A stretch of DNA of 64,000 nt from Lysobacteraceae bacterium (GTDB taxonomy: Bacteria; Pseudomonadota; Gammaproteobacteria; Xanthomonadales; Xanthomonadaceae). The notes under the pieces are model-generated. The model worked only from the letters and a program-made list of their open reading frames with translations, did no database searches and was not told the DNA's origin. Location: assembly GCA_004297225.1 (NCBI GenBank), contig SCUI01000004.1, positions 38,724 to 102,723 on the forward strand, given 5' to 3'. The translations under genes and the position numbers were made by a program. Positions 11,157 through 62,103 of this stretch are shown here, one piece after another (position 1 is the stretch's first letter; each line of letters opens with the position of its first letter).

Positions 11157-12935
11157 ATGCCCCTGATCACCCTGCAAGGCGTCGACCTCGGCGTCGGCGG
11201 CCCGCTGCTGCTGGACGCCGTCGATCTTTCGGTCGAACCCGGCGAGCGCATCGCCCTGATCGGCCGCAACGGCGCCGGCAAGTCCACCTTGCTGAAACTG
11301 CTGGCGGGCGAGGTATTGCCCGATGACGGCGACGTCCGCCGCCAGGGCGGCATCCGCGTCGCGCGGCTGGAACAGGAAGTCCCCGGCGGCCTGGGCGGCA
11401 GCGTGTCCGCGTTGGTCGCCGGGGGCCTCTCCGGGCAACCGGCTTGGCGCATCGGCGAGGTGCTGACCCGGCTCGGGCTCGACGGCGACGCGGCCTTCGA
11501 CGGCCTGTCCGGTGGCATGAAGCGACGGGTGCTGCTGGCCCGCGCGCTGGTGTCGCAACCGGACCTGCTGCTGCTCGACGAGCCGACGAACCACCTCGAC
11601 CTGGCGTCGATCGAATGGCTCGAGGGTTTCCTCAAGTCCTGGGCGGGCGCACTGGTGTTCGTGACCCACGACCGCCGTTTCCTGCGCGCGCTGGCGACCC
11701 GGATCGTCGAGATCGACCGTGGCCAGGTCACCAGCTGGCCGGGCGACTGGGCCAACTACGAGCGCCGGCGCGAGGAGCGGCTGCATGCGCAGGCGCAGGA
11801 AAACGCCCGCTTCGACAAGCTGCTGGCGCAGGAGGAGGCCTGGATCCGGCAGGGCATCAAGGCGCGGCGCACGCGCGACGAAGGCCGGGTGCGGCGGCTG
11901 GAAGCGATGCGGGTCGAGCGCGGTCGGCGCCGCGGGCAGGTGGGCGCGGTGCGCATGGAAGCCGCGGCCGCCGAAGCCTCCGGCCGCAAGGTGATCGAGG
12001 CGCGCGACGTCTCGTTCGCCTGGCCGGGGAAGGCGCCGGTGGTGGGCGACTTCTCGACCACGATCCTGCGCGGCGACCGCATCGGCCTGATCGGGCCCAA
12101 CGGCAGCGGCAAGACCACGCTGCTCAAGCTGCTGCTCGGCGAACTGGCGCCAGGCAGCGGCGAGGTGCGCGTGGGCAGCAACCTGCAGGTCGCGTATTTC
12201 GACCAGTACCGGGCGACGCTGCGCGAGGACTGGAACGCGCTGGAGAACGTCGCCGAAGGGCGCGAATCGGTGACCGTGAATGGGCGCCAGAAGCACGCGA
12301 TCGGCTACCTGCAGGATTTCCTGTTCACCGCCGAGCGCGCGCGGGCACCGATCACGCGGTTGTCCGGTGGCGAACGCAACCGGCTGCTGCTGGCGCGCCT
12401 GTTCGCGCAGCCCTCCAACCTGCTGGTGCTCGACGAACCGACCAACGACCTCGACGTGGAGACGCTGGAGCTGCTCGAGGAACTGCTGGCCGACTACCCG
12501 GGCACGCTGCTGCTGGTCAGCCACGATCGCGACTTCCTCGACCGCGTGGTGACCTCGACCCTGGTGATGGAAGGCGAGGGCGTCGTCGGCGAATACGTCG
12601 GCGGCTACAGCGACTGGCTGCGCCAGCGCCCCGAGCCGTCGGCCCCGAAGCCCGCCCCCGTAGAGCCGACCCATGGTCGGCCGCCGTCTCCTCCGTCGTC
12701 CGTCCGCCGCAAGCTCACCTACAAGGACCAGCGCGAACTCGAGGCGCTACCCGCGCTCATCGAGCAACTCGAGGCCGAGGTCGCCGCGCTGACCGAAACC
12801 ATGCACGACCCTGCGTTCTACCAGCAAGACGGCGCGGCGATCACCGCGCACACCACTAGGCTCGCCGAGATCCAGGCCGCCCTCGACGCCGCCTATGCCC
12901 GCTGGCAAGAGCTGGAATCGCAAACCGGCGGTTGA
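11157..12935 (+). CDS. uup: ABC-F family ATPase (Uup-like) with a C-terminal coiled-coil
   Basis: Has two ABC cassettes (GRNGAGKSTLLK/LSGGMKRRVLLA and GPNGSGKTTLLK/LSGGERNRLLLA), no TM domain, and a C-terminal KLTYKDQRELEALP coiled-coil region. Confidence 0.9.
   Translation: MPLITLQGVDLGVGGPLLLDAVDLSVEPGERIALIGRNGAGKSTLLKLLAGEVLPDDGDVRRQGGIRVARLEQEVPGGLGGSVSALVAGGLSGQPAWRIGEVLTRLGLDGDAAFDGLSGGMKRRVLLARALVSQPDLLLLDEPTNHLDLASIEWLEGFLKSWAGALVFVTHDRRFLRALATRIVEIDRGQVTSWPGDWANYERRREERLHAQAQENARFDKLLAQEEAWIRQGIKARRTRDEGRVRRLEAMRVERGRRRGQVGAVRMEAAAAEASGRKVIEARDVSFAWPGKAPVVGDFSTTILRGDRIGLIGPNGSGKTTLLKLLLGELAPGSGEVRVGSNLQVAYFDQYRATLREDWNALENVAEGRESVTVNGRQKHAIGYLQDFLFTAERARAPITRLSGGERNRLLLARLFAQPSNLLVLDEPTNDLDVETLELLEELLADYPGTLLLVSHDRDFLDRVVTSTLVMEGEGVVGEYVGGYSDWLRQRPEPSAPKPAPVEPTHGRPPSPPSSVRRKLTYKDQRELEALPALIEQLEAEVAALTETMHDPAFYQQDGAAITAHTTRLAEIQAALDAAYARWQELESQTGG
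12660..12682. repeat. REP1 unit located in-frame inside uup (encodes VEPTHGR)
   Basis: gtagagccgacccatggtcggcc matches the intergenic REP1 copies and lies within the Pro/Ser-rich linker of the ABC-F protein. Confidence 0.85.
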
Positions 12936-12943
12936 GGTGCAAC

Positions 12944-12970
12944 GTCGCCGCTTGCGCCGCTCCCACAAGG
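12944..12970. repeat. REP3 unit (consensus GTCGCGGCTTGCGCCGCTCCCACAAGG)
   Basis: gtcgccgcttgcgccgctcccacaagg lies between the convergent stops of uup and the M14 peptidase. Four more copies are in the window. Confidence 0.85.
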
Positions 12971-12974
12971 AGGA

Positions 12975-14753: not shown

Positions 14754-14805
14754 CGATGGTCCCCGGGGTCGGCGCGAGTTCGGATCGATGATAACGTTTC
14801 GGCCC

Positions 14806-17678: not shown

Positions 17679-17760
17679 CCGGCGGTACTCACCCGGCGTG
17701 GATGCCGGGAGTGATACTCCGGTGCGAGCCGCGCATCCGGCGCGGGGCGATGGAGGCGAC

Positions 17761-18330
17761 ATGGCAAGCGCGAGCAGGGCCGCGGCCCGGAAGGCGGCGG
17801 CGAAGAAGGCGACGAAGAAGTCCGTAGCGAAGAAGTCCGTAGCGAAGAAGTCCTCGGCCAGGAAGGCGGCGACGAGGAAGACTCCGGCGAAAAAGGTGGC
17901 CGCGAAGAAATCGGTCGCCAGGAAGTCGGTCGCGAAGAAGACGGCAACGAAGAAGGCCACTGCGAAGAAGACCGCCGCCAGGAAGCCCGCGGCGAAGAAG
18001 ACCGCGGTAAAGAAGACCGCGGCGAAGAAGTCGGCAACGAAAAAGACCGCGGCGAAGAAGACGACGTCGAAGAAGGCCATCACCCCGGGGCGGGCGCTCG
18101 CCAATACCCGCAAGTTGCTGCGCGCCAGGCAGGAACAGGCGCGGCAGGTGCCGGCCTGGCAGGCGCTGGACACCCGCCACGGCACGGTGCCGCAGCCGGG
18201 CTTCCAGTCCGACGAGGCGCGCGTGCAGGCCGGGCACCTGCATGAGGCGGAATCGCGGCTGGAGGGCATCCAGGGCTCGATCAGCACCCACGACCGGCAT
18301 AATCAGGGCAAGCGCGACCAGCGTTCCTGA
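17761..18330 (+). CDS. Histone H1-like Lys/Ala-repeat (AKKxx) protein with a non-repetitive C-terminal domain
   Basis: About 100 aa of KKxAAKK repeats (AlgP/H1-like composition) are followed by a Gln/Arg/His-rich 85-aa tail. The DNA shows the corresponding gcgaagaag periodicity. Confidence 0.7.
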   Translation: MASASRAAARKAAAKKATKKSVAKKSVAKKSSARKAATRKTPAKKVAAKKSVARKSVAKKTATKKATAKKTAARKPAAKKTAVKKTAAKKSATKKTAAKKTTSKKAITPGRALANTRKLLRARQEQARQVPAWQALDTRHGTVPQPGFQSDEARVQAGHLHEAESRLEGIQGSISTHDRHNQGKRDQRS

Positions 18331-21851: not shown

Positions 21852-21860
21852 GAAAAAGCC

Positions 21861-21910
21861 TTTGACGCGGATCCACGCGGATCAGATCCGATGAATGGCG
21901 ATCAATCACG
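21861..21910. repeat. GCGGAT-type MITE-like element, copy A (left arm only, apparently truncated)
   Basis: tttgacgcggatccacgcggatcag matches the left terminal arm of copies B-D. I found no matching right arm. Confidence 0.6.
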
Positions 21911-22270: not shown

Positions 22271-23176
22271 ATGCCCCGTCCCGTCTGGTCCGGCACGCTG
22301 TCGTTCGGGTTGCTGAACATCCCGGTCTCGCTGATGACCGGCGAGCGCCGCACCGACATTTCCTTCCGCATGCTCGACTCGCGCAACCAGGCGCCGATCC
22401 GCTACGAGCGCGTCAACGCCGAGACCGGCGAGGAAGTGCCGTGGAAGGACATCGTCAAGGCCTACGAGTACGACAAGGGCAGCTACGTCGTGCTGGAGCA
22501 GGACGATATCGCCTCGGCGGCGCCGGAAAGCCATGACGCGATCGAGGTCGAGGCCTTCGTCGACGCCGGCGCCGTGGGGCCGCAGTATTTCGAGAAGCCC
22601 TACGTGCTGGTCCCGGCGAAGAAGGCCGAGAAGGGCTATGTGCTGCTGCGCGAGGCGCTGGAGAAGACCGGCAAGATCGGCATCGCGCGCGTGGTCATCC
22701 GTACCCGCGAACACCTGTGCGCGGTGATGCCGCAAGGCAACGCGCTGCTGCTGATGATGATGCGCTATCCGCAGGAGCTGGTGGACGTGGGCGAATACAA
22801 CATCCCCGCGGGCGCCAAGGGCGACTACCGCATCAGCGCAAGGGAACTGGCGTTTTCCGAGCAACTGATCGATACCATGTCCGGCGAGTGGAAGCCGGAC
22901 GAATACCAGGACGAATTCCGCGAACGCCTGCAGAAGGTGATCCAGGAGCGGATGAAGGCCGACGGCGTGGTCAGGCGCAAGTCCGAGGAGCCTCGGGTGG
23001 AGGAGGGTGCCGCCACCAATGTGGTCGATTTCATGACCCTGCTGCAGCAGAGCATCGACCGCAACAAGCGCACGCCGGCGAAGAAGGCCGCGCCGGCGAA
23101 GAAGGCGGGGAAGAAGGCGCCGGCGAAAGCGGCGAAGAAGGTCGCGAAGAAAAGCGCCGCGCGCAAGCGCGCCTGA
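22271..23176 (+). CDS. ku: Non-homologous end joining protein Ku
   Basis: The N-terminus (RPVWSGTLSFGLLNIPV) matches the bacterial Ku core, and the C-terminal tail is Lys/Ala-rich. Confidence 0.93.
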   Translation: MPRPVWSGTLSFGLLNIPVSLMTGERRTDISFRMLDSRNQAPIRYERVNAETGEEVPWKDIVKAYEYDKGSYVVLEQDDIASAAPESHDAIEVEAFVDAGAVGPQYFEKPYVLVPAKKAEKGYVLLREALEKTGKIGIARVVIRTREHLCAVMPQGNALLLMMMRYPQELVDVGEYNIPAGAKGDYRISARELAFSEQLIDTMSGEWKPDEYQDEFRERLQKVIQERMKADGVVRRKSEEPRVEEGAATNVVDFMTLLQQSIDRNKRTPAKKAAPAKKAGKKAPAKAAKKVAKKSAARKRA

Positions 23177-23188: not shown

Positions 23189-25672
23189 GTGAGCCTGCGC
23201 GAATATGCCCGCAAGCGCCGCTTCGGCGACACCCCGGAACCCGACGACCGCAGTGTCGCCGGCAAGCGCGGCAAGCGCCCGACCTTCGTCGTCCAGCTGC
23301 ACCACGCCCGCGCCCGCCATTACGACTTCCGCCTGGAAATGGACGGCACGCTCAAGAGCTGGGCGGTGCCCAAGGGACCGTCCTATCGCCTCGGCGAGCG
23401 CCGCCTGGCGGTCGAGGTCGAGGACCACCCGCTCAGCTACGCCACCTTCGAAGGCGACATCCCGGAAGGCAACTACGGCGCCGGCCACGTCGACATCTTC
23501 GACCACGGCGTCTGGAGCGCCAGCGGCGATCCGCTGGAAGGCCTGGCGGCGGGCAAGCTCGACTTCACCCTCCACGGCGAGAAGCTCCACGGCGGCTGGA
23601 AACTCGTCCGCACCCAGCAGGTCCGCAGCGGCAAGCCGCAATGGCTGCTGTTCAAGCGCGACGACGAATACGTGGCGGACCTGGAAGCCGACGACCTGAT
23701 CGAAGGGAACGGCAAGCGCAAGGCCGGGAGGGGGAAGCCCTTGAAGGTGAGTAAAAGAGCAGTCGAACCTTCAAGGGCTTCCCCCTCCCGGCGTGGAGCG
23801 TCCCGCGCCAGCCGCAAGCGGGTGGATTGGGCGAAGCGGGCGGCGGCGCTGGACGGGGCGAAGGCGAAGCGGAATTGGACGCCGCCGCTGCCGCAGCTGG
23901 CGACGCTGCGGCAGGCGCCGCCGTCGGGCGACGACTGGCTGCACGAGCTGAAATGGGATGGCTACCGGATGCTGGTGGACATCGCCGGCGGCAAGGTCAA
24001 GCTGCGGTCGCGCAACGGCCTGGACTGGACCGCCGACTACCCCGACATCGTCAAGGCCTTCGAAGCGCTCGGCATCGACGAGGGCACCTTCGACGGCGAG
24101 CTGATCGCGCTCACCGACAAGGGCAACGACGACTTCGCCCTGCTGCAACGCGTGATCTCGGGCAATGCGAACGCACCGCTGAAATACATGCTGTTCGACA
24201 TGCCGTCGCTGGCCGGGCAGGACCTCACCGCGACCCGGCTGCAGGAGCGAAAGGCGCTGCTCGAATCGCTGCTCGAGGGCGCCGCTCCCGTGCTCGGCTT
24301 CAGCCAGCACATCGTCGGCCATGGCGACAAGGTGTTCGCCGCCAGCCGGAAGCAGGGCATGGAGGGCATCGTCAGCAAGGCGCTGGACGCGAAGTACACG
24401 CCCGGGCGCTCGAAGACCTGGCTCAAGTCCAAGCACGCGCAGTCCGACGAGTTCGTGATCGTCGGCTACACACCGCCCAAGGGCGGGCGCAGCGGCTTCG
24501 GCGCGCTGCTGATGGCCACGCGCGAGCGTGGCAAGCTGGCCTACAAGGGTCGGGTCGGTACCGGCTACGACGACGCGATGCTGCGCTCGCTGCTGGCCCG
24601 CCTGCAGCCGTTGGTGCGCAAGGAAGCCGTGGTGGCGTTGCCGTCGCACACGACACTGCGCCCCAGGCACGTGACCTGGGTCGAGCCCAGGCTCGTCGCC
24701 GAAGTGGAGTATCGCGGCTTCGGCAAGGAAGGCCTGCTGCGCCAGGCCAGCTTCAAGGGCGTGCGCGAGGACAAGACGGTGCAGGAAGTCGGCGACCAGT
24801 CGGAGGGAGTCCGCATCACCAGCCCGCAGAAGCTGGTGTTCCCGGAACTGAAGATCCGCAAGCAGCAGGTTGCGGATTTCTATCGCGACATCGCGCCGCT
24901 GCTGCTTGCCGATCTCGCGAACCGGCCGCTGTCACTGGTGCGCTGCCCCGACGGGATCAAGGGCCAGTGCTTCTTCCAGAAGCACCACGCCGCCACCCTT
25001 GGCGCGAACGTGCGCACGGTGCCGATCCGGGAGAAGGACGGCGGCTTCGAGGACTACCTGTACGTCGACGACATCGACGGCGTGCTCGAGCTGGTGCAGA
25101 TGAACGTGCTCGAGTTCCACCCCTGGGGCGCGCGCATCGACGACGTCGAGCGTCCGGACCGGCTGGTGTTCGACCTCGATCCCGGCCCCGGCGTGGATTG
25201 GCCTCGGATCAAGGCGGCGGCGCGCGAAGTGCGCGACCGGCTCCAGGACGCAAGCCTGAAGACCTTCCTGCGCCTGTCCGGTGGCAAGGGCCTGCACGTG
25301 GTGTTGCCGATCCGGCCGGAACAGGAGTGGGCCGATGCCAAGGCCTTCTGCGAGGCGTTCGCGCGGGCGATGGAGCAGCAGGCGCCGGACCGCTACGTGG
25401 CCACCGCGACCAAGTCGAAGCGCCAGGGCGTGATCTTCATCGACTGGTTGCGCAACGGCCGCGGCGCCACCAGCGTCGCCAGCTGGTCGCTGCGCGCGCG
25501 CAAGGAAGCCGGCGTCGCCGTGCCGCTGGCGTGGAGCGAACTCGGGCGCACCAAATCAGGCCACGACTACCCGCTGGACAAGGCCCTGCGCCGCGCCAGG
25601 TCCGCCAAGGCCGACCCCTGGTCCGCCGAAGGCTGGACCGCCGCCCTCCGCCAGTCCCTCCCGCGCTTGTAG
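23189..25672 (+). CDS. ligD: ATP-dependent DNA ligase D (3'-phosphoesterase, ligase and polymerase/primase domains)
   Basis: GTG start. Shows the PE domain (FVVQLHHARARHYDFRLE), the ligase motif I region (ELKWDGYR) and a C-terminal LigD polymerase domain (CFFQKH, FDLDPG). Confidence 0.92.
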   Translation: MSLREYARKRRFGDTPEPDDRSVAGKRGKRPTFVVQLHHARARHYDFRLEMDGTLKSWAVPKGPSYRLGERRLAVEVEDHPLSYATFEGDIPEGNYGAGHVDIFDHGVWSASGDPLEGLAAGKLDFTLHGEKLHGGWKLVRTQQVRSGKPQWLLFKRDDEYVADLEADDLIEGNGKRKAGRGKPLKVSKRAVEPSRASPSRRGASRASRKRVDWAKRAAALDGAKAKRNWTPPLPQLATLRQAPPSGDDWLHELKWDGYRMLVDIAGGKVKLRSRNGLDWTADYPDIVKAFEALGIDEGTFDGELIALTDKGNDDFALLQRVISGNANAPLKYMLFDMPSLAGQDLTATRLQERKALLESLLEGAAPVLGFSQHIVGHGDKVFAASRKQGMEGIVSKALDAKYTPGRSKTWLKSKHAQSDEFVIVGYTPPKGGRSGFGALLMATRERGKLAYKGRVGTGYDDAMLRSLLARLQPLVRKEAVVALPSHTTLRPRHVTWVEPRLVAEVEYRGFGKEGLLRQASFKGVREDKTVQEVGDQSEGVRITSPQKLVFPELKIRKQQVADFYRDIAPLLLADLANRPLSLVRCPDGIKGQCFFQKHHAATLGANVRTVPIREKDGGFEDYLYVDDIDGVLELVQMNVLEFHPWGARIDDVERPDRLVFDLDPGPGVDWPRIKAAAREVRDRLQDASLKTFLRLSGGKGLHVVLPIRPEQEWADAKAFCEAFARAMEQQAPDRYVATATKSKRQGVIFIDWLRNGRGATSVASWSLRARKEAGVAVPLAWSELGRTKSGHDYPLDKALRRARSAKADPWSAEGWTAALRQSLPRL
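23724..23791. repeat. 24-bp perfect inverted repeat with a 20-nt loop, inside the ligD coding sequence
   Basis: ccgggagggggaagcccttgaagg (23724-23747) is the exact reverse complement of ccttcaagggcttccccctcccgg (23768-23791). The AT-richer loop is tgagtaaaagagcagtcgaa. Confidence 0.9.
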
Positions 25673-25680
25673 GTATTCTT

Positions 25681-25794
25681 TTTGACGCGGATCAACGCGG
25701 ATCAAAACGGATAAGAAAATGGGTTCGCGACGATCGGGGAGATCGCCGCGAACCCATCGTCCATCTGCTCTTATCCGCGTTGATCCGCGTCAAA
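25681..25794. repeat. GCGGAT-type MITE-like element, copy B (complete)
   Basis: The terminal inverted repeats are tttgacgcggatcaacgcggat and atccgcgttgatccgcgtcaaa. An internal 11-bp inverted repeat is atgggttcgcg/cgcgaacccat. It lies between convergent ligD and dcp. Confidence 0.85.
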
Positions 25795-25805
25795 TGGCTC
25801 CTGCT

Positions 25806-28603: not shown

Positions 28604-31600
28604 TTACCGGAAGTCGCGGGAGGTGGTGGCGAGGTTGTCCAGCAGCGGGGAGAGGTTCTCGAGGCGGGTGGCGATGAGGTGGCGGGTGCCGTCGGCGGCT
28701 TCCATGCGGCCTTCCACCGCCATCAGTTGCGATTCGAGCAAGGCGCGGCGGTCGCGTTCGGCCAGCGCGCGCCAGACCACCACGTTGACCATGCCGGTCT
28801 CGTCCTCCAGGGTCATGAAGGTCACGCCGCTCGCGGTTTGCGGTCGCTGGCGCAGGACCACCAGCCCGGCGTAGCGGGCGTGGCGCCCGTTCGGCAGCTC
28901 GGCCAGCTCGCGCGCGCGGCGGTAGCGGCGCTGCTGCAATTGCCGGCGCAGCAGTGCCAGCGGATGCGCGCCCAGGGTGAGCCCGGTGCTGGCGTAATCG
29001 GCGCGGGTGTCTTCGTAGGCGCTGGGCGGCGGGATCGCGATCCGCGTTTCCCGGGCCTGCGTCCCGGCGAACAGCGGCAGCTGCTTCTGCGCCCCGGCGC
29101 TTTGCCAGCGCGCGCGGTGGCGATGGCCGGCCAGCCCGCGCAACGCCGCGGCCTCGGCCAGTTTCGCCAGGCTGCCGCGGTCCAGGTCGGCGCGATGCAC
29201 CAGGTCGTCGAGGTCGCGGAACGGCGCCTGCGCGCGCGCGGCCATGATCCGCGCCGCCGCATCCTCGCGCAGGCCGGTGATCATCCGCAGGCCCAGCCGC
29301 AGCGCCGGCTGCGCCGCCGCGTCGTCCCGCGTTTCCAGCGTGCAGTCCCAGTCGCTGTAGCGCAGGTCCACCGGGCGTACCTCCACGCCCGCGCGGCGCG
29401 CGTCGGCCACCAGCTGCGGCGGCAGGTAGAAACCCATCGGCAGCGAGTTCAGCAGCGCGCAGGAGAACACCGCCGGCTCATGGCACTTGATCCAGGCGCT
29501 GACGTAGGTGAGCAGTGCGAAGCTGGCCGCGTGCGACTCGGGGAAACCGTAGTCGCCGAAACCCTGGATCTGTTCGAACAGGCGTTCGGCGAAGGCGGTG
29601 GTGTAACCGCGTGCGTTCATTCCCGCCAGCAGCGCGTCGCGATGCTTCTCCAGGCCGCCGCGGCGTTTCCACGCGGCCATGTCGCGGCGCAGCTGGTCGG
29701 CCTGGCCGGGGGTGTAGCCGGCGGCCTCCATCGCGATGCGCATCACCTGTTCCTGGAACAGCGGCACGCCCAGGGTGCGCTGCAACACCTTGCGCAAGGC
29801 CTCGGACGGGTAGTCCACCGGTTCCAGCCCCTGCCGCCGGCGCAGGTAGGGATGGATCATGCCGCCCTGGATCGGGCCCGGGCGCACGATCGCCACCTCG
29901 ATCACCAGGTCGTAGAAGGTCGCCGGCTTGAGCCGCGGCAGCATCGCCATCTGCGCGCGCGATTCGACCTGGAACACGCCGACCACGTCGCCGCGCTGGA
30001 CCATGGCGTAGGTGGCGGGATCCTCGGCCGGGATCGTCGCCATCTCCAGGTCGCGGCCGCGTTGCGCGCGCATCAGGTCCAGCGCCTTGCGGATGCAGGT
30101 CAGCATGCCCAGCGCCAGCACGTCGACCTTGAGCAGGCCCATGGTGTCCAGGTCGTCCTTGTCCCACTGGATGATGGTGCGCTCGGCCATCGCCGCGTTC
30201 TCCACCGGCACCAGCTGGTGCAGCGGCTGCTCGGAGATGACGAAGCCGCCGACGTGCTGCGACAGGTGCCGCGGCTTGCCCATCAGTTCCCCGGCCAGCG
30301 CGACCAGTTGCCGCATCGCCCGGCTGCCGGGGTCGAAGCCGCGTTCGCGCAGGCGCTCCGGCGGCGGCGCGTGGCTGCTCCAGTGGCCGACGCAGCCGGC
30401 CAGCTGCGCCACCTGGTCCTCGGGCAGGCCCAGCGCGCGGGCGACATCGCGCACCGCGCTGCGCGCCCGATAGCGGATCACGGTAGCGGCCAGCGCCGCG
30501 CGTTCGCGGCCGTAGCGCTGGTAGAGGTACTGGATGACTTCCTCGCGGCGCTCGTGCTCGAAGTCGATGTCGATGTCCGGCGGCTCGTTGCGCTCCTCGG
30601 AGATGAAGCGCTCGAACAGCAGGCCCATGCGCGCCGGGTCGATCGCGGTGACGCCCAGCGCGTAGCAGACCACCGAGTTGGCGGCCGAGCCACGCCCCTG
30701 GCACAGGATCCCGCGCGAACGCGCGAAGCGGACGATGTCGTGCACGGTGAGGAAGTAGGGCTCGTAGCCCTTTTTGTGCACCAGCGCCAGTTCCTTCTCG
30801 ATCAGCGCGCGCGCCTCCTCGCCTTCGCCTTCCGGCCAGCGTTCGCGCACGCCGTCCTCCACCAGTTGCCGCAACCAGGTTTGCGCGCTGTGACCCTCGG
30901 GCACCAGCTCGCGCGGATACTGGTAGCCCAGGTCCTGGTCGAGCCGGAACCGGCAGCGCGCGGCGATGCGCGTGGTTTCCTCCAGCAGTTCGCGCGGATA
31001 CATGGCGGCCAGTGCGCGCGGCGTGCGCAGGTGGCGCTCGCCGTTGGCGAACAGGCGTGCACCGGCGCGGGACACGGTGGTGCGGTGGCGGATCGCGGTC
31101 ATGGTGTCCTGCAGCGCGCGGCGGCCGCGCACGTGCATGTGTACGTCGCCGCTGGCGACGGCGGGAATGCCGAGATCGCGGGCGAGCGACTGCAGTTCCT
31201 GCAGGCGCCGTGCGTCGTCGGCGCTGCGATGCAGTTCCACCGCCAGCCACAGGCGGCCGTCGAAGCGTTCGCGCAGCCAGTGGCCGTCCTCGCGGGAAGG
31301 CCCGGCGCCGGGCACCCACAGCACCAGCAGGCCGGGCAGGCCGTCCTCGAGGTCTTCGCGCAGCAGCCGGTACTCGCCCTTGGCCGAACGGCGGCGGCCC
31401 TGCGTGACCAATCGGCACAGCCGGGCGTAACCGGCGCGATCCTCGACCAGCAGCACCAGCTTCAAGCCGTCCTCCAGCGTGACCTCGCTGCCGACGACCA
31501 GCTTCACCCCGGTCTCGCGCGAGGCTTCCAGTGCGCGGACGATGCCGGCCAGCGAGCATTCGTCGGTGATCGCGAGCGCGGCGTAGCCCTGCTGCCGCGC

Positions 31601-31750
31601 GCGTTCGAACAGTTCGGCGGCGTTGGAGGCGCCGCGGCCGAAGCTGAAGTCGGAGAGGCAGTGCAGCTCCGCATACCCCTGTAGAGCCGACCCATGGTCG
31701 GCTTCATGCAACAGCAGCCGACCATGGGTCGGCTCTACGGGAGTGCTCAT
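28604..31750 (-). CDS. dnaE2: Error-prone DNA polymerase DnaE2 (Pol III alpha paralogue)
   Basis: [17 protein letters not shown] marks the PHP domain start, and the length is about 1048 aa. The ATG overlaps the imuB stop (ATGA). The first ~25 codons are encoded by a REP1 dimer, so the true start is uncertain. Confidence 0.9.
31681..31738. repeat. REP1 dimer (two inverted units separated by 12 nt)
   Basis: gtagagccgacccatggtcggct, then tcatgcaacagc, then agccgaccatgggtcggctctac. It lies just downstream of the imuB stop and in-frame with dnaE2. Confidence 0.9.
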
Positions 31751-38199: not shown

Positions 38200-38211
38200 C
38201 TGCGTTTGCCA

Positions 38212-38972: not shown

Positions 38973-38999
38973 CCTTGAGGGAGCGGCGGAAGCCGCGAC
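38973..38999. repeat. REP3 unit
   Basis: ccttgagggagcggcggaagccgcgac lies in the 48-bp gap between two same-strand genes. Confidence 0.8.
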
Positions 39000-45801: not shown

Positions 45802-46758
45802 ATGAAGGCACGACGGATTCTTTCGATGGACGGCGGCGGCATCCGCGGCCTGGTCACCTGCGAATGGCTGGCCGGGGTCGAGGATGCGCTGGCTGCGGCG
45901 GGCAAACCCGGTTTGTCCCGCAATTTCGACCTGCTGGCCGGCAGTTCCACCGGCGCGATCATCGCCTGCGGGCTGGCGATCGGCTTGTCGCCGCGCGACA
46001 TGGCGGCGCTGTACCGCAGGCATGCGCACACCATCTTCCCGGGCATCGCCGGGCGGCTGTGGTCGCGCGCCGGCCGTTTTTTCACCGAAGGCGTGTCGGC
46101 GCCCAAGTACGACGGCAAGGGCCTGGAAAAGGTGCTGAAGGAAGTCTTCGGCAATACCACGCTGGGCCAGGCCAAGCGGCCGGTGATGATCACCAGCTAC
46201 GATACGATTTCGCGCAAGCCGGTGATGTTCAAGAGCTTCAAGGCCGCGCACAAGGCGATCCCGATGTGGGAAGCCTGCCGCGCCTCGGCCGCGGCGCCGA
46301 CGTATTTCCCGGCCCACGGCATGAGCGTGGAAGGGCGCACGTGCGCGCTGATCGACGGCGGAATGCTCGCCAACAACCCCACCGCCTGCGCGATCGCCGA
46401 GGCCTTGCGCAAGGACGCCGGCGCCGACGTGCCGAAGGACCTGGTGGTGGTGTCGATCGGCAGTGGAGAACACACCCGCAGCATCGACCTGAAGTCGGCG
46501 CGCGAGTGGGGCGCGCTGGAGTGGGCGGTCCCGATCATCGACGTGCTGTTCGACGGCAGCGCCGAGTCGGTGGACTACATCGCCCGCCACCTGGTCGGCG
46601 AGGGCTACTTCCGGCTGCAGGCCGAACTGCGGATCGGCATGGACGACATGGACGACGTCAGCGGCACCAACCTGGCCGCGCTCGAGGCCACCGCGCGCGA
46701 GTACCTGATGCTCCCCGCCACCCGCAAGCGCCTCCGCACCCTCGCTGCGCTCCTGTAG
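45802..46758 (+). CDS. Patatin-like phospholipase
   Basis: Has the oxyanion motif DGGGIRG, the nucleophile elbow GSSTG, and the DGG of the catalytic dyad (IDGGMLANNP). Confidence 0.9.
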   Translation: MKARRILSMDGGGIRGLVTCEWLAGVEDALAAAGKPGLSRNFDLLAGSSTGAIIACGLAIGLSPRDMAALYRRHAHTIFPGIAGRLWSRAGRFFTEGVSAPKYDGKGLEKVLKEVFGNTTLGQAKRPVMITSYDTISRKPVMFKSFKAAHKAIPMWEACRASAAAPTYFPAHGMSVEGRTCALIDGGMLANNPTACAIAEALRKDAGADVPKDLVVVSIGSGEHTRSIDLKSAREWGALEWAVPIIDVLFDGSAESVDYIARHLVGEGYFRLQAELRIGMDDMDDVSGTNLAALEATAREYLMLPATRKRLRTLAALL

Positions 46759-46780
46759 TAGAGCCGGCCCATGGCCGGCT
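46758..46780. repeat. REP1 variant unit (gtagagccggcccatggccggct)
   Basis: It exactly fills the gap between the patatin stop (TAG 46756-46758) and the pldA stop (46781-46783). Confidence 0.8.
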
Positions 46781-47902
46781 TCAATACCACTCCATGAGCG
46801 AGATCCCGAGCCCGATATAGGTCGCGCGGTGGTTGTAATCCACCATGCTCTCGCCGTAGCCGTCGAACACCTGCAGGTGGCCGCGGAAGGTGTCGTGGAG
46901 CGGGAACGCCCAGTCGAACTGCACCGCGCCGTGCGACTGCGCGCCGCCCCGCAACGAGTGCCGCAGCATCAGCGACAGCTGGTGGCCATTGGGCAGCACC
47001 CTCACCAGGGTCGCGTCGCCGCGGCCCATGTAATCGGAGATGTCCGGGTTGTCGTCGCCGCCGCCGGGCTCGGGCATGCGCACCCAGGGTCGCAGGTTCA
47101 ACGCCCAGCCGTCGCGGTCCATGCCGAAGTTGAACACCAGCCGGTTCCAGCTGCGCGACAGCGGGTTGTCGCGGCCATTGGACTGGTGGTTGATGCCGAC
47201 CGCCGCCAGCCGCCCCTTCCAGCCGAGCAGGTTCCAGCCGGTGCGGAAGGCGAGCATCACTTCCGGCTCGTAGTTGGTCTCGCGGAACATGCGCGAGGAT
47301 TCGCCGTTGTAGACCTGCCAGTGCGAGGCCTGGGTATAGGCCATCCAGATGTCGCCGTTGTCGCCGAACAGGTTCTCCACCGCCTTGGTCTTGAAGCTGA
47401 TCTGGAACTTCGCTTCCAGCGAGTCGATCGGCGTGTCGCCGCCGCCTTCGCCCAGCGACGGCGAGAACGGGTCCTCGTTGACGTTGCTGGTGGCGAACAG
47501 CGGGAACAGGTAGACCGGTTTGTAGGCGCGGAAGTTGAAGATGCCGAGCTTGGAACTGGCGGCGAGTTCCCAGCGGTTGTCCAGCAGCGAGCCCTTGCCG
47601 GCATTGGCGATCGCCGCGAGCGCGGCCGGGTCGGTGACGGTCGGTGCGTCGCGGCGGAACAGGCTGGGCGCGCCGTATTCGGCGCGCGCGGCATCGGCGA
47701 CGGCATCGGCCTGCTGCGGCGTCGACAGTTCGCGTTTCATCGCGGCGTCGTAGCAGGCCAGGCGGGTGGCGGCGATCTCCACCGCCACGCAGGCCTCGAT
47801 GCCGGGATGCGCTTCCTCCGTCGGTGCCTGCGCCTGCGCATGCGCTGCCAGCGGGGCAAGCAGCAGCGGGATCGGCAGGCAACGGGCGAGGATGGCGCGC
47901 AT
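46781..47902 (-). CDS. pldA: Outer membrane phospholipase A (OMPLA)
   Basis: Has a signal peptide, the YKPVYLFP dimerisation/beta-barrel start, and the catalytic HQSNGR motif. Confidence 0.9.
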   Translation of the reverse strand: MRAILARCLPIPLLLAPLAAHAQAQAPTEEAHPGIEACVAVEIAATRLACYDAAMKRELSTPQQADAVADAARAEYGAPSLFRRDAPTVTDPAALAAIANAGKGSLLDNRWELAASSKLGIFNFRAYKPVYLFPLFATSNVNEDPFSPSLGEGGGDTPIDSLEAKFQISFKTKAVENLFGDNGDIWMAYTQASHWQVYNGESSRMFRETNYEPEVMLAFRTGWNLLGWKGRLAAVGINHQSNGRDNPLSRSWNRLVFNFGMDRDGWALNLRPWVRMPEPGGGDDNPDISDYMGRGDATLVRVLPNGHQLSLMLRHSLRGGAQSHGAVQFDWAFPLHDTFRGHLQVFDGYGESMVDYNHRATYIGLGISLMEWY

Positions 47903-47913: not shown

Positions 47914-49350
47914 TTACGGTGGCGGAGGCGCCGCGGCGGGCTTTGGATCGGTTTCCGGCGAAGCCAGGTTCTCGTCGTCGTGGGCGCGCTGGGCGGCGGC
48001 CAGTTGCTCGTCGATGTCGCGGTTGACCGAGGTGTCGCCGCTGGGCTCCGGCGGCGGCCCAGGCACCGGAAGCGGCAGCGGTTCCCGGCTTTCCTCGCGC
48101 AGGTAGCGCACGGTCTCCGGCCCGTGGACGCCGGCCTTGGCGAATGCGCCGCGGACCGCGCGCAAGGCCTCGCTGCGGGTCTTGCCCAGGTCGTTGCGGC
48201 GCTGGTCGATCCAGCCGAAGAAGCGCAGGTCCAGGCCCTTGGCGTTGTAGCCGTCCACCGACGAGGATGGCGCCGGATCGAGCAGCACCCCGTCCACCTG
48301 CGCGATCGCCGCAAGGCCCGCTTCACTGGCGTGGTGCGCGGACTCGGACGGGTCGATCGGCAGCACGAAGTCGAAGCGCCGACGCGGGTTGGCGGTGTAG
48401 TTCAGCACCACCGACTTGAACACCAGCGCGTTGGGCAGCGACAACTGGTTGCCGTCCAGGGTCATCAGCAGGGTCGCGCGCGAGGTCAGCGCGATCACCT
48501 TGCCCTCGTACTTGTCCACCACCAGGTGGTCGTCCGGCGCGAACGGGCGGCGCAGGCTCAGCAGGATGCCGGCCATGTAGTTCTCGGCGATGTCCTTGAA
48601 GGCGAAGCCGACGACCAGGCCGATCACGCCCGCCGACCCCAGCACCGCGCCGACCAGCGCGGTGGCCCCCAGCAGGTTCAACGCCAGCACCAGGCCCAGC
48701 ACCACCACCACCGACTGCACCAGCCGCCGCACCAGCCCTTCCAGGAACGGGTTGCGCTGGCGCCGGCGCAGCCAGGCCATCGGCCGGCGCGCCAGCAGTT
48801 TTCCGGCCAGCACCGACAGGTACACGATCGCCAGGGCGACCACCAGCAGCGGGATCGCGCCGACCAGCCGCACCAGTTTCTGTTGCGTCTGCGCCAAGGC
48901 CGCCCGCATGCGTTCAGGGAGGTTGGCGCTGATCGCGACCTGGTTGGACACCGCGCCGACGCCATCCACCGACTTCGCCAGCGTGCCGGCCAGGTCGCGG
49001 TCGGCATCGGCCAGCACTTCGCCACCCAGGGTGACGATGCCGGAGTTCACCGCCACGGTGACCTGCTGCAGGCGGGGATGTCGCAACAGCCGGGCGGTGA
49101 CCGCGGAGGCGATGCGCGAGTCGCTCTGCTCGCCGGCGCGCACTTCCGCGGCAAGGTCCCTGGCCTCCTGCGACGCCGGTTGCTGCAGGACTTCGGTGGC
49201 CTGCTCGATGACCGGCTGGGGCGCTTCCGGATCTTCGGTCGCGGATTGGGCGTGGGCCAGGAGGGGCGGAATCGAAAGCAGGAGCAAGATCAAAAGCAAG
49301 AGCGGGCGCGGCTTGCGCCGCTCCCACAATGGAGAGTGCGGCGGACTCAT
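47914..49350 (-). CDS. Mechanosensitive ion channel (MscS family) with an N-terminal periplasmic BON domain
   Basis: Shows a signal peptide, a BON-like segment (VTVAVNSGIVTLGGEV...VSNQV), TM helices and the MscS beta-domain (GKVIALTSRATLLMTLDGNQLSLPN). The ATG overlaps the upstream stop (ATGA). Confidence 0.85.
   Translation of the reverse strand: MSPPHSPLWERRKPRPLLLLILLLLSIPPLLAHAQSATEDPEAPQPVIEQATEVLQQPASQEARDLAAEVRAGEQSDSRIASAVTARLLRHPRLQQVTVAVNSGIVTLGGEVLADADRDLAGTLAKSVDGVGAVSNQVAISANLPERMRAALAQTQQKLVRLVGAIPLLVVALAIVYLSVLAGKLLARRPMAWLRRRQRNPFLEGLVRRLVQSVVVVLGLVLALNLLGATALVGAVLGSAGVIGLVVGFAFKDIAENYMAGILLSLRRPFAPDDHLVVDKYEGKVIALTSRATLLMTLDGNQLSLPNALVFKSVVLNYTANPRRRFDFVLPIDPSESAHHASEAGLAAIAQVDGVLLDPAPSSSVDGYNAKGLDLRFFGWIDQRRNDLGKTRSEALRAVRGAFAKAGVHGPETVRYLREESREPLPLPVPGPPPEPSGDTSVNRDIDEQLAAAQRAHDDENLASPETDPKPAAAPPPP
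49306..49332. repeat. REP3 unit in-frame in the first codons of the MscS-family gene (encodes PLWERRKPRP)
   Basis: ggcgcggcttgcgccgctcccacaatgg matches the intergenic REP3 copies. Confidence 0.8.
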
Positions 49351-51208: not shown

Positions 51209-51231
51209 GTAGAGCCGACCCATGGTCGGCT
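51209..51231. repeat. REP1 unit
   Basis: gtagagccgacccatggtcggct lies between DUF456 and the M35 peptidase gene. Confidence 0.85.
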
Positions 51232-53042: not shown

Positions 53043-53065
53043 GTAGAGCCGACCCATGGTCGGCT
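53043..53065. repeat. REP1 unit
   Basis: gtagagccgacccatggtcggct lies between two same-strand genes. Confidence 0.85.
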
Positions 53066-53599: not shown

Positions 53600-54430
53600 A
53601 TGGACATGTTCGACACCGACCACGTGCTGCGGGACCGCTTCGCCGGCATCGACCGGCTGTACGGGCAGGGCGCCATCGAGCGCCTGTCGAAGGTGCGGGT
53701 GGCGGTCGTGGGCCTGGGCGGCGTCGGCTCCTGGGCGGCCGAGGCGCTGGCGCGCAGCGCGGTCGGGCACCTGTCGCTGATCGACGCCGACGACCTGTGC
53801 CTGTCCAACACCAGCCGGCAGTTGCCGGCGGTGGCGGGGCAGTACGGGCGCAACAAGGCGGTGGCGATGGCCGAGCGCTGCCGCGCGATCAACCCGGCGA
53901 TCGAGGCGCGCGCGGTCGAGGCGTTCCTGACGCCGGCGAACCTGGAGGCGATGCTGGGTGACGGATACGACCTGGTGCTCGACGCCTGCGACAGTTTCCG
54001 CACCAAGGTCGAGGCGATCGCGTGGTGCCGCCGGCGCAAGTTGCCGGTGATCACCGTCGGCGCCGCGGGCGGCCGCACCGATCCGACGCAGGTGCGGGTG
54101 CGCGACCTCTCGCGCACCGAGCACGACGCGATGCTGTCGATGATCCGCAAGAAGCTGCGGGGCGAGTTCAATTTCCCGAAGAACCACGATCGCTACTTCG
54201 GCGTGCCGGCGGTGTACTCGCTGGAGAACGTGCGCTACCCGCAGGCCGACGGCAGCGTCTGCGGCCTGCGTCCGAAACTCGACCGCGACGCCGCGCTCAA
54301 ACTCGATTGCGGCGCCGGCCTCGGCGCTGCCACCCACATCACCGGCGCCTTCGCCTTCGCCGCCACCGCCAAGGCCCTGGAAATCCTCCTGAAGGGCCAG
54401 GCGGGCGCAGGACGCGGATCACGCGGATAA
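53600..54430 (+). CDS. tcdA: tRNA threonylcarbamoyladenosine dehydratase (TcdA/CsdL, ThiF/E1-like)
   Basis: Contains RFAGIDRLYG and a Rossmann GLGGVGSW motif, plus LIDADDLCLSNTSRQ. The last 6 codons and the stop lie in MITE-like copy D. Confidence 0.87.
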   Translation: MDMFDTDHVLRDRFAGIDRLYGQGAIERLSKVRVAVVGLGGVGSWAAEALARSAVGHLSLIDADDLCLSNTSRQLPAVAGQYGRNKAVAMAERCRAINPAIEARAVEAFLTPANLEAMLGDGYDLVLDACDSFRTKVEAIAWCRRRKLPVITVGAAGGRTDPTQVRVRDLSRTEHDAMLSMIRKKLRGEFNFPKNHDRYFGVPAVYSLENVRYPQADGSVCGLRPKLDRDAALKLDCGAGLGAATHITGAFAFAATAKALEILLKGQAGAGRGSRG

Positions 54431-54541
54431 GAGCCGATCAACACGGATAAAGACGATAGTTGCTGAGCGCGCGCTTGGAGATCGCAGGAAACCACTACAG
54501 AAGATCCGCGTTCATCCGCTTCTATCCGCGTGATCCGCGTC
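54411..54541. repeat. GCGGAT-type MITE-like element, copy D (complete)
   Basis: The arms gacgcggatcacgcggataagagccgatcaacacggat and atccgcgttcatccgcttctatccgcgtgatccgcgtc are inverted, and their first 19 nt are identical. Both flanking convergent genes terminate inside it. Confidence 0.85.
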
Positions 54542-55321
54542 TAAAAGGGAACCATCCGACGGGAGGTTGAACAGGCGTTCGGCGTTGGCGGTGGTGATGG
54601 CGGCGATTTCGGCGGGGTCCTGGTCGCGGATCACGGCGATGGCATCGAGCACGGCGGTGAGGCGGGCGGGTTCGTTGCGCTGGCCCTGGGTGTGGCAGTC
54701 GGGTTGGTCGGGCGCATCGGTTTCCAGCAGCAGGTACTGCAGCGGCATCGACGCGGCCAGCCGGCGGATGCGCCTGGCGCGTGCATAGGTGACCGGCCCG
54801 CCGAGGCCGACCAGGAAGCCGTTTTCCCACAGCTGCTCGGCTTGCTGCCGACTGCCGGAGAAGCTGTGCACCACGCCGCGCAGGCCGCCGACCCGGCGGA
54901 TGGCCAGCAGCACCTCTTCCACCGCGCGCCGCGCATGCACGATCACCGGCAGGTCGAACTCGCGCGCGATCTCCAGCTGCGCTTCGAAATAGTGCAGCTG
55001 CGCCGCGCGGTCCAGGCCCTCGACGAAATGATCCAGCCCGCATTCGCCCACCGCCAGCGGCCGCTCGCGTTCGATCCACTCGCGCAACTGCCCGAGATGC
55101 TGCGGCGCGTGGCCGGCGAGGAAGGTCGGGTGCAGGCCGTACGCCGGGAACAGGCCTTCGATCGCCGCGCAGACGTCACGCAGCTTCGGCCAGGAGATGG
55201 CGTCGACCGCCGGTACCACCTGCCGCGCGACGCCCGCCGCGCGCGCACGTTCGACGACCGCCGCGCGGTCGGCATCGAACTCGTCGGCATCGATGTGGCT
55301 GTGGCTGTCGACCAGCTGCAT
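54512..55321 (-). CDS. tatD: TatD family metal-dependent hydrolase
   Basis: Contains LVDSHSHID plus the ECGLD, HAR and ETDAP motifs. The last ~10 codons are encoded by the right arm of MITE-like copy D. Confidence 0.88.
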   Translation of the reverse strand: MQLVDSHSHIDADEFDADRAAVVERARAAGVARQVVPAVDAISWPKLRDVCAAIEGLFPAYGLHPTFLAGHAPQHLGQLREWIERERPLAVGECGLDHFVEGLDRAAQLHYFEAQLEIAREFDLPVIVHARRAVEEVLLAIRRVGGLRGVVHSFSGSRQQAEQLWENGFLVGLGGPVTYARARRIRRLAASMPLQYLLLETDAPDQPDCHTQGQRNEPARLTAVLDAIAVIRDQDPAEIAAITTANAERLFNLPSDGSLLDADHADRSG

Positions 55322-57753: not shown

Positions 57754-57755
57754 CC

Positions 57756-58292: not shown

Positions 58293-58300
58293 GGGGAACC

Positions 58301-60568: not shown

Positions 60569-61234
60569 CCGCGACGCATCCACCCATTCGTCCCAGGCGC
60601 TGCCCCAGCCGTCGTAGGTGACCAGGTAGCGGCCGTTCTCCGCCCGCAGGATCTTCCCCGGGTACCAGCCGCCGCTCCATGCGATCTCCACGCGCATGCC
60701 GGTGGCGTACGCACTACCGCCTGGCGCGCGCGTGCCGGCAGTCGGCGCCGGCGCGGGCGCCGCAGCGCTGCCGCCCAGGCGCGTACCCGTCGCCGCGTGT
60801 CCGCCGACGCCACCGAACAGCACCACCAGCGTGTCGCCGGCGCGGTAATAGAACTCGTATTCGTCGCCGCTCGCGTGCACGACACGGAAATAGCGGCGAT
60901 CCGCCTGCGCGTGCCACGGCCGCACTTCCTCCAGGCGTCCCTGCCTGTCGCCCCAGCGGTATCGCCCGTCGGACGCGATCTCCAACCGGTTCATCGCCGC
61001 GCCCGGCTGGTAGTGCTGCGCGATGCGCAATCCGTCGGTGGTGTAGTAGACCGAACCAGGGATCCATACTTCCCACGCGCCGACGATGCGCGCGTCGATC
61101 GGGCCGGCATCGGGCACGCGCGCGGCGCGTTCCATCGAACGCGGATCGACCTGTTGCCCGCCGGAGACGGAAGCGACAGGCACGGTGGCGACGACGCCGA
61201 ACAGGGCGGCGTGGAGCAGCACGTTGCGACGCAT
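60557..61234 (-). CDS. Secreted protein with a C-terminal Tudor/agenet-like (SH3-fold) domain
   Basis: Signal peptide MRRNVLLHAALFGVVATVPVASV. The C-terminal GMRVEIAWSGGWYPGKILRAENGRYLVTYDGWGSAWDEWVDASRLR follows the Tudor-like pattern. It overlaps the E1 gene 3' end by 12 nt. Confidence 0.6.
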   Translation of the reverse strand: MRRNVLLHAALFGVVATVPVASVSGGQQVDPRSMERAARVPDAGPIDARIVGAWEVWIPGSVYYTTDGLRIAQHYQPGAAMNRLEIASDGRYRWGDRQGRLEEVRPWHAQADRRYFRVVHASGDEYEFYYRAGDTLVVLFGGVGGHAATGTRLGGSAAAPAPAPTAGTRAPGGSAYATGMRVEIAWSGGWYPGKILRAENGRYLVTYDGWGSAWDEWVDASRLRK

Positions 61235-61257
61235 GGAATTCCCCTGGAAACATGGCC

Positions 61258-62103
61258 TCAGGCCGGTCGCGCCAATCCCCCGAGGAATCCACGGGCGGGC
61301 GCGGTGCGCCCGTGGACGCGGAAAGCGTCGTCGGCCGCGTCCAGCGGTGCCACGACCTGGATCAAGTGCAGGCCATCGGTCCCGGTCGCCACGCAGACGA
61401 CTTCGCCCAGCGGTTCGCCCGCCGCGTCCTGCACGCGCTCGCCGGGTGCCGGCGCCACGTCGGCGGCCAGCAGCCGCAGGCCACGCTTGGCCTGGCCGAG
61501 GAAATGCGTGCGCGCGACGATCTCCTGGCCCGGATAACAGCCCTTTTTCACGCTGAAGGCGCGCAGGCGCTCCAGCGAAAGCTGCTGCGGCGTCCATTTC
61601 TCCGCCTGCGCCGGCGCCAGCCGCGGCAGGCCGTGGGCGACGTCGGCGGCGCGCCATCGGGCGAGGGCGGCGGGGTCGGGAGCAGCTGGATCGCCGCCGA
61701 TGAGCAGGGTGCGCGGGCCGCCTTCACCGGACATGTCGAGGGAGAGAACCCCGTCGCGGCTTCCGCCGCTCCCACAACCGAGGAGTGCGGAAATCGGCAG
61801 ATCCGGCGTCGCGATGGCCACTTTGCTGCGGAACACGAACCGCCGCAGCGCACTTGCGAACGATTCTCGATCCGCGTCCGGCAGCACCAGCCACACCGAT
61901 TCCGGCGCGCGCCGCAGCAGCGCGAACAGCGCCAGCACGCGGCCTTTCGGCGTCAACCAGCCGCTCCAGTGCCATTGCCCATCGCCCAGCGAAGTGACGT
62001 CGCTCATGAACTGCGCGTGCGAAAACGCGATGGCGTCGCGCCCCTCCAGCGTCACCAGGCCATGGCCCGGCAGGGCGAACGGAACGTGCGGCTTGTCGGT
62101 CAT
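61258..62103 (-). CDS. ygfZ: YgfZ folate-binding Fe-S cluster repair/tRNA-modification protein
   Basis: Carries the KGCYPGQE signature and a GcvT-like N-terminal fold (LVTLEGRDAIAF). It contains a REP3-encoded segment. Confidence 0.85.
   Translation of the reverse strand: MTDKPHVPFALPGHGLVTLEGRDAIAFSHAQFMSDVTSLGDGQWHWSGWLTPKGRVLALFALLRRAPESVWLVLPDADRESFASALRRFVFRSKVAIATPDLPISALLGCGSGGSRDGVLSLDMSGEGGPRTLLIGGDPAAPDPAALARWRAADVAHGLPRLAPAQAEKWTPQQLSLERLRAFSVKKGCYPGQEIVARTHFLGQAKRGLRLLAADVAPAPGERVQDAAGEPLGEVVCVATGTDGLHLIQVVAPLDAADDAFRVHGRTAPARGFLGGLARPA
61753..61779. repeat. REP3 unit in-frame inside ygfZ (encodes LGCGSGGSRDGV)
   Basis: gtcgcggcttccgccgctcccacaacc matches the intergenic REP3 copies. 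Confidence 0.82.

Follow-up and report, generated by a model that had tools for sequence, protein, structure and literature searches.

Rickettsia palindromic elements (RPEs), reportedly described by Ogata et al. in 2000, are said to be AT-rich, with the classical RPE-1 being 100-150 bp long. Closer to the DNA studied here, repetitive extragenic palindromic sequences (REPs) tagged with GTAG or CGTC have been found inside genes of Stenotrophomonas maltophilia, Xanthomonas campestris, Xanthomonas oryzae, Opitutus terrae and others (Di Nocera, De Gregorio & Rocco 2013, BMC Genomics 14:522, PMC3733652). According to that survey, the host genes include dnaE2, a DNA ligase gene, uvrA and recB, with repair genes being frequent; REP termini supply stop codons, dimers code for 20-30 residues, and in two Xanthomonas species roughly the same position of recB is occupied by different REPs. 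Here, we analysed a window of 64,000 nucleotides (64 kb) of a Lysobacteraceae bacterium (assembly GCA_004297225.1, contig SCUI01000004.1, positions 38,724 to 102,723), in which a first-pass annotation had noticed palindromic repeats lying in frame inside coding sequences. This could be confirmed for uup, lexA, ygfZ, dnaE2 and a gene for an MscS-family channel, where homology is found on both sides of the repeat or no alternative start exists. The accompanying view that the pattern is unrecognised outside Rickettsia, or in Xanthomonadales, had to be dropped: REPs inside genes are a known behaviour, including in Xanthomonas relatives, and were already catalogued in the survey cited. The best explanation of the pattern is, in all probability, that mobile palindromes survive only at permissive, disordered sites.

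Two short repeat families, REP1 and REP3, were searched for in the window at up to 3 mismatches. REP1 (GTAGAGCCGACCCATGGTCGGC) measures 22 nt, its stem (GCCGACC/GGTCGGC) having 7 bp and its loop 3 nt, and is present in 7 copies with 0 expected from 100 shuffles. Six of the seven are identical, and the seventh (46758) departs from them by two changes that compensate each other in the stem. REP3 (GTGGGAGCGGCGCAAGCCGCGAC), a unit of 23 nt of the GTGGGAGC...GCGAC type with the stem GCGGC/GCCGC, has 5 copies with 1-2 mismatches each, again with 0 expected from 100 shuffles. REP1 is GTAG-tagged, with the GTAG head on every copy; REP3 is headed by GTGG (GAGG in one copy), and in 2/5 copies its far end reads CGTC on the opposite strand. 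The GTAG/CGTC tag is thus unambiguous in REP1 but no more than partial in REP3. Of these 12 copies, six lie within coding sequence, as judged from our own rough gene models, which were built from third-position GC content together with Pfam and NCBIfam. The genes that matter here are uup and ygfZ, the lexA-imuA-imuB-dnaE2 cassette, ku-ligD, tcdA, tatD, a DUF488 gene and a BON-MscS channel gene with a cardiolipin-synthase-like gene ahead of it. The coding REP copies, all placed where the first-pass annotation had put them, and a longer hairpin in ligD are the following:

12660-12681, plus strand: REP1 in uup (11157-12935, plus strand), coding for VEPTHGR, residues 502-508 of 592
31681-31738: REP1 inverted dimer in dnaE2 (28604-31750, minus strand), with units at 31717-31738 (minus strand) and 31681-31702 (plus strand), codons 5-24
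34239-34261, plus strand: REP3 in lexA (33816-34475, minus strand), read antisense, coding for SSRGLHRSH
49305-49327, minus strand: REP3 in the BON-MscS channel gene (47914-49350, minus strand), codons 8-16, LWERRKPRP
61753-61775, minus strand: REP3 in ygfZ (61258-62103, minus strand), coding for CGSGGSRD in a hypervariable surface loop
23724-23791, plus strand: hairpin in ligD (23189-25672, plus strand), with a 25-bp perfect stem (23724-23748/23767-23791) and an 18-nt loop

REP3 is read antisense in lexA, and ygfZ and the MscS gene both read it in sense but in different frames, as had been claimed. REP1 is read in both orientations. The resulting peptides are unrelated to each other (VEPTHGR and ADHGSAL from REP1; SSRGLHRSH, CGSGGSRD and WERRKPR from REP3). 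The same units also occur in intergenic DNA, and orthologues either lack them or have another palindrome in their place. These observations bear out the proposal of insertion as opposed to a conserved protein motif.

Like the REPs surveyed by Di Nocera et al., those of the window are short GC-rich GTAG-headed palindromes, present as single units and inverted dimers, mostly just past stop codons and sometimes giving the stop itself, with a minority lying wholly inside open reading frames (ORFs), coding for 7-30 residues and hitting dnaE2, DNA ligase and other repair genes. What is new is limited to a Luteimonas/Lysobacter-like lineage, new consensus sequences, new targets or positions (the Uup linker, the LexA hinge, the YgfZ loop, a signal-peptide n-region and the very N-terminus of DnaE2), the argument that N-terminal copies are coding, here made through start/stop overlap, and the finding that unrelated palindromes recur at the imuB-dnaE2 junction. 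With RPEs, the elements share their behaviour, that of palindromic selfish DNA which sits in frame in functional genes, at surface or linker positions and in different frames; an in-frame insertion between conserved flanks, by which RPEs are recognised, was found in Uup, LexA, YgfZ, LigD and DnaE2. RPEs are AT-rich and belong to an obligate intracellular alphaproteobacterium, whereas the present elements are 22-23-nt GC-rich REPs, one 68-nt hairpin and 115-135-bp elements resembling transposable elements of the miniature inverted-repeat kind (MITEs). Judged by analogy of composition (the GC content of the window is 69%), length and host, homology to RPEs is very unlikely and only the behaviour is shared. 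A further comparison is offered by the systems of REPs, their hairpin-forming doublets (REPINs) and REP-associated tyrosine transposases (RAYTs), on which Bertels and Rainey reportedly worked in 2011. The window resembles these REP/REPIN-RAYT systems (Nunvar et al. 2010, PMC2817692; Ton-Hoang et al. 2012, PMC3333891) in its GTAG-tagged hairpin, its many near-identical copies and its short-spacer inverted doublets, also known as bacterial interspersed mosaic elements (BIMEs), which were found at 31681-31738, at 7467-7548 of the related locus L002 and in the ygfZ loop of L102. It differs from them in that no RAYT/Y1 transposase (Y1_Tnp) was detected among the approximately 50 ORFs of the window scanned against Pfam and NCBIfam.

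Two classes of coding copies can be told apart. Those of uup, lexA, ygfZ and ligD are truly internal and inserted in a linker or loop, while the copies of dnaE2 and the MscS gene are ordinary post-stop REPs, which become N-terminal codons because the downstream ATG overlaps the upstream stop and leaves zero intergenic space. In the lexA-imuA-imuB-dnaE2 cassette, which has essentially no intergenic space throughout, the ATG of dnaE2 overlaps the TGA of imuB (ATGA, 31747-31750) and the REP1 dimer begins 8 nt past the imuB stop. The dimer comprises 58 nt with a 23-bp stem, and the 81-nt junction has a folding free energy (dG) of about -61 kcal/mol. From the dimer to the conserved YAELHC motif, no in-frame start codon occurs, and it is exactly at YAELHC that the NCBIfam profile for the error-prone polymerase starts. 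When the first 200 residues of DnaE2 were searched against 50%-identity representatives, nearly all of the best 150 matches became homologous only from residue 21-26 onwards, behind the REP dimer. Many of the matches are fragments with unreliable starts, so that the counts exclude N-terminal extensions.

Judging by its sequence, the host is a REP-rich Lysobacteraceae genome of Luteimonas/Lysobacter type. In a genome scan with ImuB, its closest relatives were the Luteimonas metagenome-assembled genome (MAG) L001 (93% ImuB identity), the Lysobacter MAG L002 (90%) and Cognatiluteimonas lumbrici L003 (82%). Across about 60 readable imuB-dnaE2 junctions, the norm is an ATGA or GTGA overlap followed by 3-5 codons and YAELHC. 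The junctions of L001 and L003 follow this norm without an insert, and because both keep the insert-free junction, the dimer in dnaE2 of the window is a clean insertion. L002 carries the same REP1 dimer plus a 27-nt nested hairpin, which makes its spacer 27 nt longer, L006 has a single REP3-like unit, and unrelated palindromes of 108-171 nt are found in L004, L007, L016 and L053. All the palindromic inserts of the window and of these six loci are in frame and free of stop codons, and their length is a multiple of three in 7/7 cases (P ~0.0005 under an unconstrained frame; 7/8, with P ~0.003, if L034 is also counted). This preservation of the frame indicates that translation would start at the coupled ATG and run through the palindromes. 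Start/stop-overlap junctions offer a natural way to test inserted palindromes for translation. We found no published description of a palindrome at the imuB-dnaE2 junction in the literature.

The insert of L034 is an out-of-frame derivative of the L016 element, with an internal 37-nt deletion and an in-frame ATG left in the loop. The possibility that L016 and L034 represent independent insertions of one element, which would suggest targeting, was rejected since their ImuB proteins are 93% identical, so that a single event is involved. L034 is labelled Rubrivivax and L016 Arenimonas; the ImuB identity and the shared junction element point to a mis-binned contig or a recent transfer. Within dnaE2, there is a second palindrome site in the linker between the finger and helix-hairpin-helix (HhH) domains (residues ~817-848), where two Arenimonas-like genomes carry different in-frame REP dimers of a GTAGGAG type (L016 9881-9962 and L053 9871-9924); dnaE2 of the window has no palindrome at this position. 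A hairpin inside dnaE2 of L010 was rejected as an insertion, since it resembles ordinary coding sequence.

A second overlap junction leads to the MscS-family channel. Its ATG overlaps the TGA of the cardiolipin-synthase-like gene (ATGA, 49347-49350), with REP3 lying ~20 nt past that stop. LWERRKPRP is the sole basic stretch before the hydrophobic core and the AHA cleavage site, that is, the n-region of the signal peptide; the other candidate starts (TTG) either keep the repeat or leave zero n-region. In the orthologue L081, which has a GTGA overlap, the protein starts with MRSLLL... and has a 3-residue n-region, the window having 13 extra codons. This comparison relies on a single orthologue, the only one in a metagenome scan with the same upstream neighbour and a comparable start junction. 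As regards annotation, DnaE2 and the MscS-family protein would be mis-called by REP-masking or by start-codon heuristics.

Among the internal copies, REP1 of uup sits in a Pro/Ala-rich linker, with the ABC2 domain on one side and the C-terminal coiled-coil ABC_tran_CTD on the other. VEPTHGR is present in relatives with at least 85% identity (P0122-P0127) and missing in those with 81% or less. Another lineage has a different REP-like motif, VEPSHARL, in the Uup linker, which resembles the peptide AEPSHAR listed for the GTAG-7 REP of S. maltophilia (PMC3733652). At the protein level, the linker motifs VEPSHARL, GARLARD and SGARLVRAP in the Uup orthologues P0141, P0130, P0131 and P0142 look like the products of other REP families. 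In lexA, REP3 forms part of the hinge, preceded by the DNA-binding domain and followed by the LPVLGRVAAG strand, which contains the cleavage site, and the S24 domain. The hinge is 18 residues longer than that of E. coli LexA. Its REP3 is shared by the window, L002 and L006 and missing from L004, L005, L009 and more distant relatives; the copy of the window carries a stem mismatch, and the hinge of L003 contains an apparent decayed remnant. Searching 101 loci with the consensus sequences gave REP1 in L002 only and REP3 in L002 and L006 only.

In an AlphaFold model of YgfZ with a mean pLDDT (predicted local distance difference test) of 82, the REP3 loop lies between two strands, and its 10-residue block scores 71 as compared to 96 and 86 for its neighbours. 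REP1-coded peptides occupy the same loop in the orthologues P0002, P0003 and P0010. For two of them, the ygfZ DNA was compared: L102, which encodes P0002, has a perfect REP1 inverted dimer exactly at the REP3 site of the window, and L103, which encodes P0010, a degenerate one in the loop. The hairpin of ligD, which lies within 39-nt arms and codes for about GRGKPLKVSKRAVEPSRASPSR, had been reported as a unique 24-bp perfect hairpin in a linker. It is indeed present in a single copy in the window and located between the phosphoesterase and ligase domains, but its perfect stem extends to 25 bp. The residues encoded are present in LigD proteins of 98% and 85% identity and missing at 84% (P0243-245), and two other LigD proteins have an apparently related palindromic peptide, PLK...SPSKGS, at the same position, as seen at the protein level only. 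Alignment with orthologues, which had been suggested as a check for clean indels, revealed presence/absence polymorphism at every site, often with different palindromes at one site in sister lineages. It gave a clean indel in dnaE2, by comparison with L001 and L003, but none at the hypervariable sites of YgfZ and Uup. As to linker evolution, REPs provide hinge residues of LexA and Uup as well as the basic n-region of a signal peptide.

According to the explanation that we favour, REP1, REP3, the longer hairpin and the GCGGAT family described below would have spread as mobile or duplicating palindromes. Gene-breaking insertions would have been purged and the survivors would keep the frame in structurally unconstrained segments, namely the interdomain linkers of Uup, LexA and LigD, the surface loop of YgfZ and N- and C-terminal tails, and such segments would be hit repeatedly in REP-rich lineages. 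This reading draws on the identity of the repeats, the gene models, the presence or absence of the repeats among orthologues and the preservation of the frame. The inserted residues are probably translated and selectively near-neutral, and a RAYT or similar process may spread the units, their mobility being deduced only from presence and absence among relatives. Several points weigh against this explanation. The Uup linker of the window is no longer than REP-free linkers, and the hypervariability of the Uup and YgfZ sites means that a clean indel cannot be drawn there. The intragenic share of 6/12 may reflect the sampling of only 64 kb of the genome, the inserted codons are predicted as translated from sequence alone, and mobilisation by a RAYT is only putative, no RAYT gene lying in the window. 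Moreover, unrelated palindromes recurring at the same junction could mean targeting or selection, not mere tolerance.

This last point leads to an alternative that we regard as unlikely, in which the hairpins after the stops in the coupled operons (imuB-dnaE2 and cls-mscS) are selected regulatory elements that tune translational coupling, mRNA decay or ribosome stalling and set the dose of the error-prone polymerase, the extra residues being a by-product. At least six unrelated palindromes, the large ones with a dG of -59 to -96 kcal/mol, are found at the same imuB-dnaE2 junction in different Lysobacterales lineages, while approximately 55 readable Pseudomonas/Stutzerimonas junctions contain zero palindromes and have start-to-YAELHC spacers of only 15-33 nt. 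The distance of the REP1 dimer from the imuB stop also falls inside the 15-nt range that one study ties to translational control by REPs (PMC12306157), the stem of the variant at 46758 is preserved through its compensatory pair, and an excess of REPs in repair genes was noted by Di Nocera et al. (PMC3733652). Nevertheless, the closest relative, L001, and also L003 do without any insert, which marks it as dispensable, and the LexA-hinge REP3 is mismatched in the window and looks decayed in L003. Tolerance alone, in REP-rich genomes with a gapless operon, would give the same pattern, and the fact that palindromes share another site within dnaE2, the finger-HhH linker, points to permissive linkers over a function specific to the junction. 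Going further, one might envisage the imuB-dnaE2 overlap as a recurrent landing pad across Lysobacterales, whose very stable and always translatable hairpins now serve to uncouple the expression of the error-prone polymerase from that of ImuA and ImuB or to throttle it, with the REP of the lexA hinge being part of the same tuning and REPs being a routine source of linker and signal-peptide residues in the family. We consider this doubtful. If junction hairpins did modulate the SOS mutagenesis operon, mobile repeats would be tied to the control of mutation supply.

Much less probable still is an artefact of the gene models, with the repeats being extragenic and the overlaps arising from wrong starts or frames. 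Intragenic REPs at N-termini are often misannotations, as pointed out by Di Nocera et al. (PMC3733652), and this holds true for one copy of the window, the REP1 at 53043, which corrected gene models moved outside the translated region; the others stayed inside. That explanation is largely refuted by the conserved domains that flank the repeat in one frame in Uup, LexA, YgfZ and LigD, and by the lengths of the dnaE2 junction inserts, all multiples of three. Furthermore, the sole other in-frame start of dnaE2, a TTG in the spacer between the REP1 units, would still leave the second copy translated, and without the basic residues coded by REP3 the MscS protein would have no normal signal peptide. 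As for conserved peptide motifs that converged at the protein level, or a mis-assembly of repeats, we give them practically no chance: no points in their favour were found, the same 22-23-mers occur in intergenic DNA and, in both orientations and several frames, yield unrelated peptides, and the same insertions are seen in the independent assemblies L002, L006, L102, P0001, P0122-127 and P0241-242. With mobile palindromes surviving at permissive sites as the preferred explanation, the window would represent a clear and well-controlled case of selfish palindromes becoming protein sequence in free-living GC-rich bacteria.

The remaining REP copies lie outside coding sequence:

10929-10950, minus strand: intergenic REP1 upstream of uup, 10 nt past the stop of the preceding gene
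12944-12966, minus strand: intergenic REP3 between convergent uup and an M14 carboxypeptidase gene
38977-38999, plus strand: intergenic REP3, 11 nt past the stop of a glucose/sorbosone dehydrogenase gene
46758-46779, plus strand: REP1 variant, taking up all of the gap that separates the convergent genes for a patatin-like protein and phospholipase A1; the patatin TAG stop ends with its first base
51209-51230, plus strand: intergenic REP1, 14 nt past the stop of an M35 peptidase gene
53043-53064, plus strand: REP1 in the 5' untranslated region of a glycine-zipper lipoprotein gene, non-coding

When all 12 copies were compared with the gene models, 8/12 were found to follow a stop codon within 26 nt, the position classically occupied by REPs. 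Even with six copies inside genes, REPs are depleted in coding DNA, given a coding density of ~0.9 of the window bases according to the rough gene models. S. maltophilia has a total of approximately 1,650 REPs. Relative to this total, the 12 ORFs in the supplement of PMC3733652 imply an intragenic share of roughly 1% or less for that species, compared with 6/12 here. The REP1 at 53043 had been considered as an in-frame case since it lies inside the longest ORF, but it was rejected because the true start is the ATG at 52986, with a GGAGG Shine-Dalgarno sequence before and a lipobox after it. The spacer between the patatin-like and phospholipase A1 genes (46756-46783) amounts to one 22-nt REP1, in which the changes A to G and T to C pair up and the stem is kept.

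The GCGGAT family is of a different kind. It consists of three full copies of 115-135 bp, with terminal inverted repeats of 35-45 bp, plus one half copy, and the terminal repeats are composed of 10-bp GCGGAT(C/A)A sub-repeats:

54411-54545, no strand assigned: GCGGAT element between convergent tcdA (53600-54430, plus strand) and tatD (54512-55321, minus strand), its two terminal repeats giving C-terminal codons and stops of both
38072-38205, no strand assigned: GCGGAT element between the DUF488 gene (ends at 38078, plus strand) and an NYN-domain gene (38212-38961, minus strand)
25679-25795, no strand assigned: reference copy of the GCGGAT element, fully intergenic, between convergent ligD and an M3 peptidase gene
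21859-21895, plus strand: GCGGAT half copy (one terminal repeat), 8 nt past the stop of a cyclopropane-fatty-acid-synthase-like gene

The first-pass annotation had assigned the C-terminal codons of tcdA and tatD and the stop codon of the DUF488 gene to this family, and that assignment stands, with only 3' tails being overlapped. The element gives the final 5-6 codons and the stop of tcdA and ~10 codons and the stop of tatD, in both cases at or past the end of the conserved profile, while in the DUF488 gene two bases of the TGA stop (38076-38078) come from the left end of the copy at 38072. The elements fold at -66 to -76 kcal/mol, with z-scores of -4.8 to -12, and in size (70-300 bp), terminal repeats, non-coding nature and multiple copies they agree with the definition of MITEs. 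No clear duplicated flank (target-site duplication) emerged from an alignment of the copies, the consensus had no copy in the 101 loci searched, and no parent insertion sequence was found in the window. Like MITEs described in coding regions (Coxiella MITEs, PMC5896051; Delihas 2011 review, PMC3184786), the elements fold into long hairpins and give C-terminal codons and stops; unlike in those MITEs, their terminal repeats are built of 10-bp sub-repeats and the full copies (3/3) all lie between convergent genes. The hairpins have T-runs before and A-runs after them, which is the reverse of a bidirectional terminator.

A scan of the window against Rfam gave no family at threshold. Other repeats of the window were noted in passing. 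The ORF at 17698-18330 (plus strand) matches the histone H1-like nucleoprotein HC2 and consists almost wholly of 15-bp tandem repeats that are rich in Lys and Ala, and the C-terminal tail of Ku (23076-23143) is a short run of the same 15-bp repeat type. Finally, a 334-residue ORF at 414-1418 (minus strand), without a Pfam match, has good third-position GC and contains a long array of 9/12-bp periodic repeats at 799-1258.

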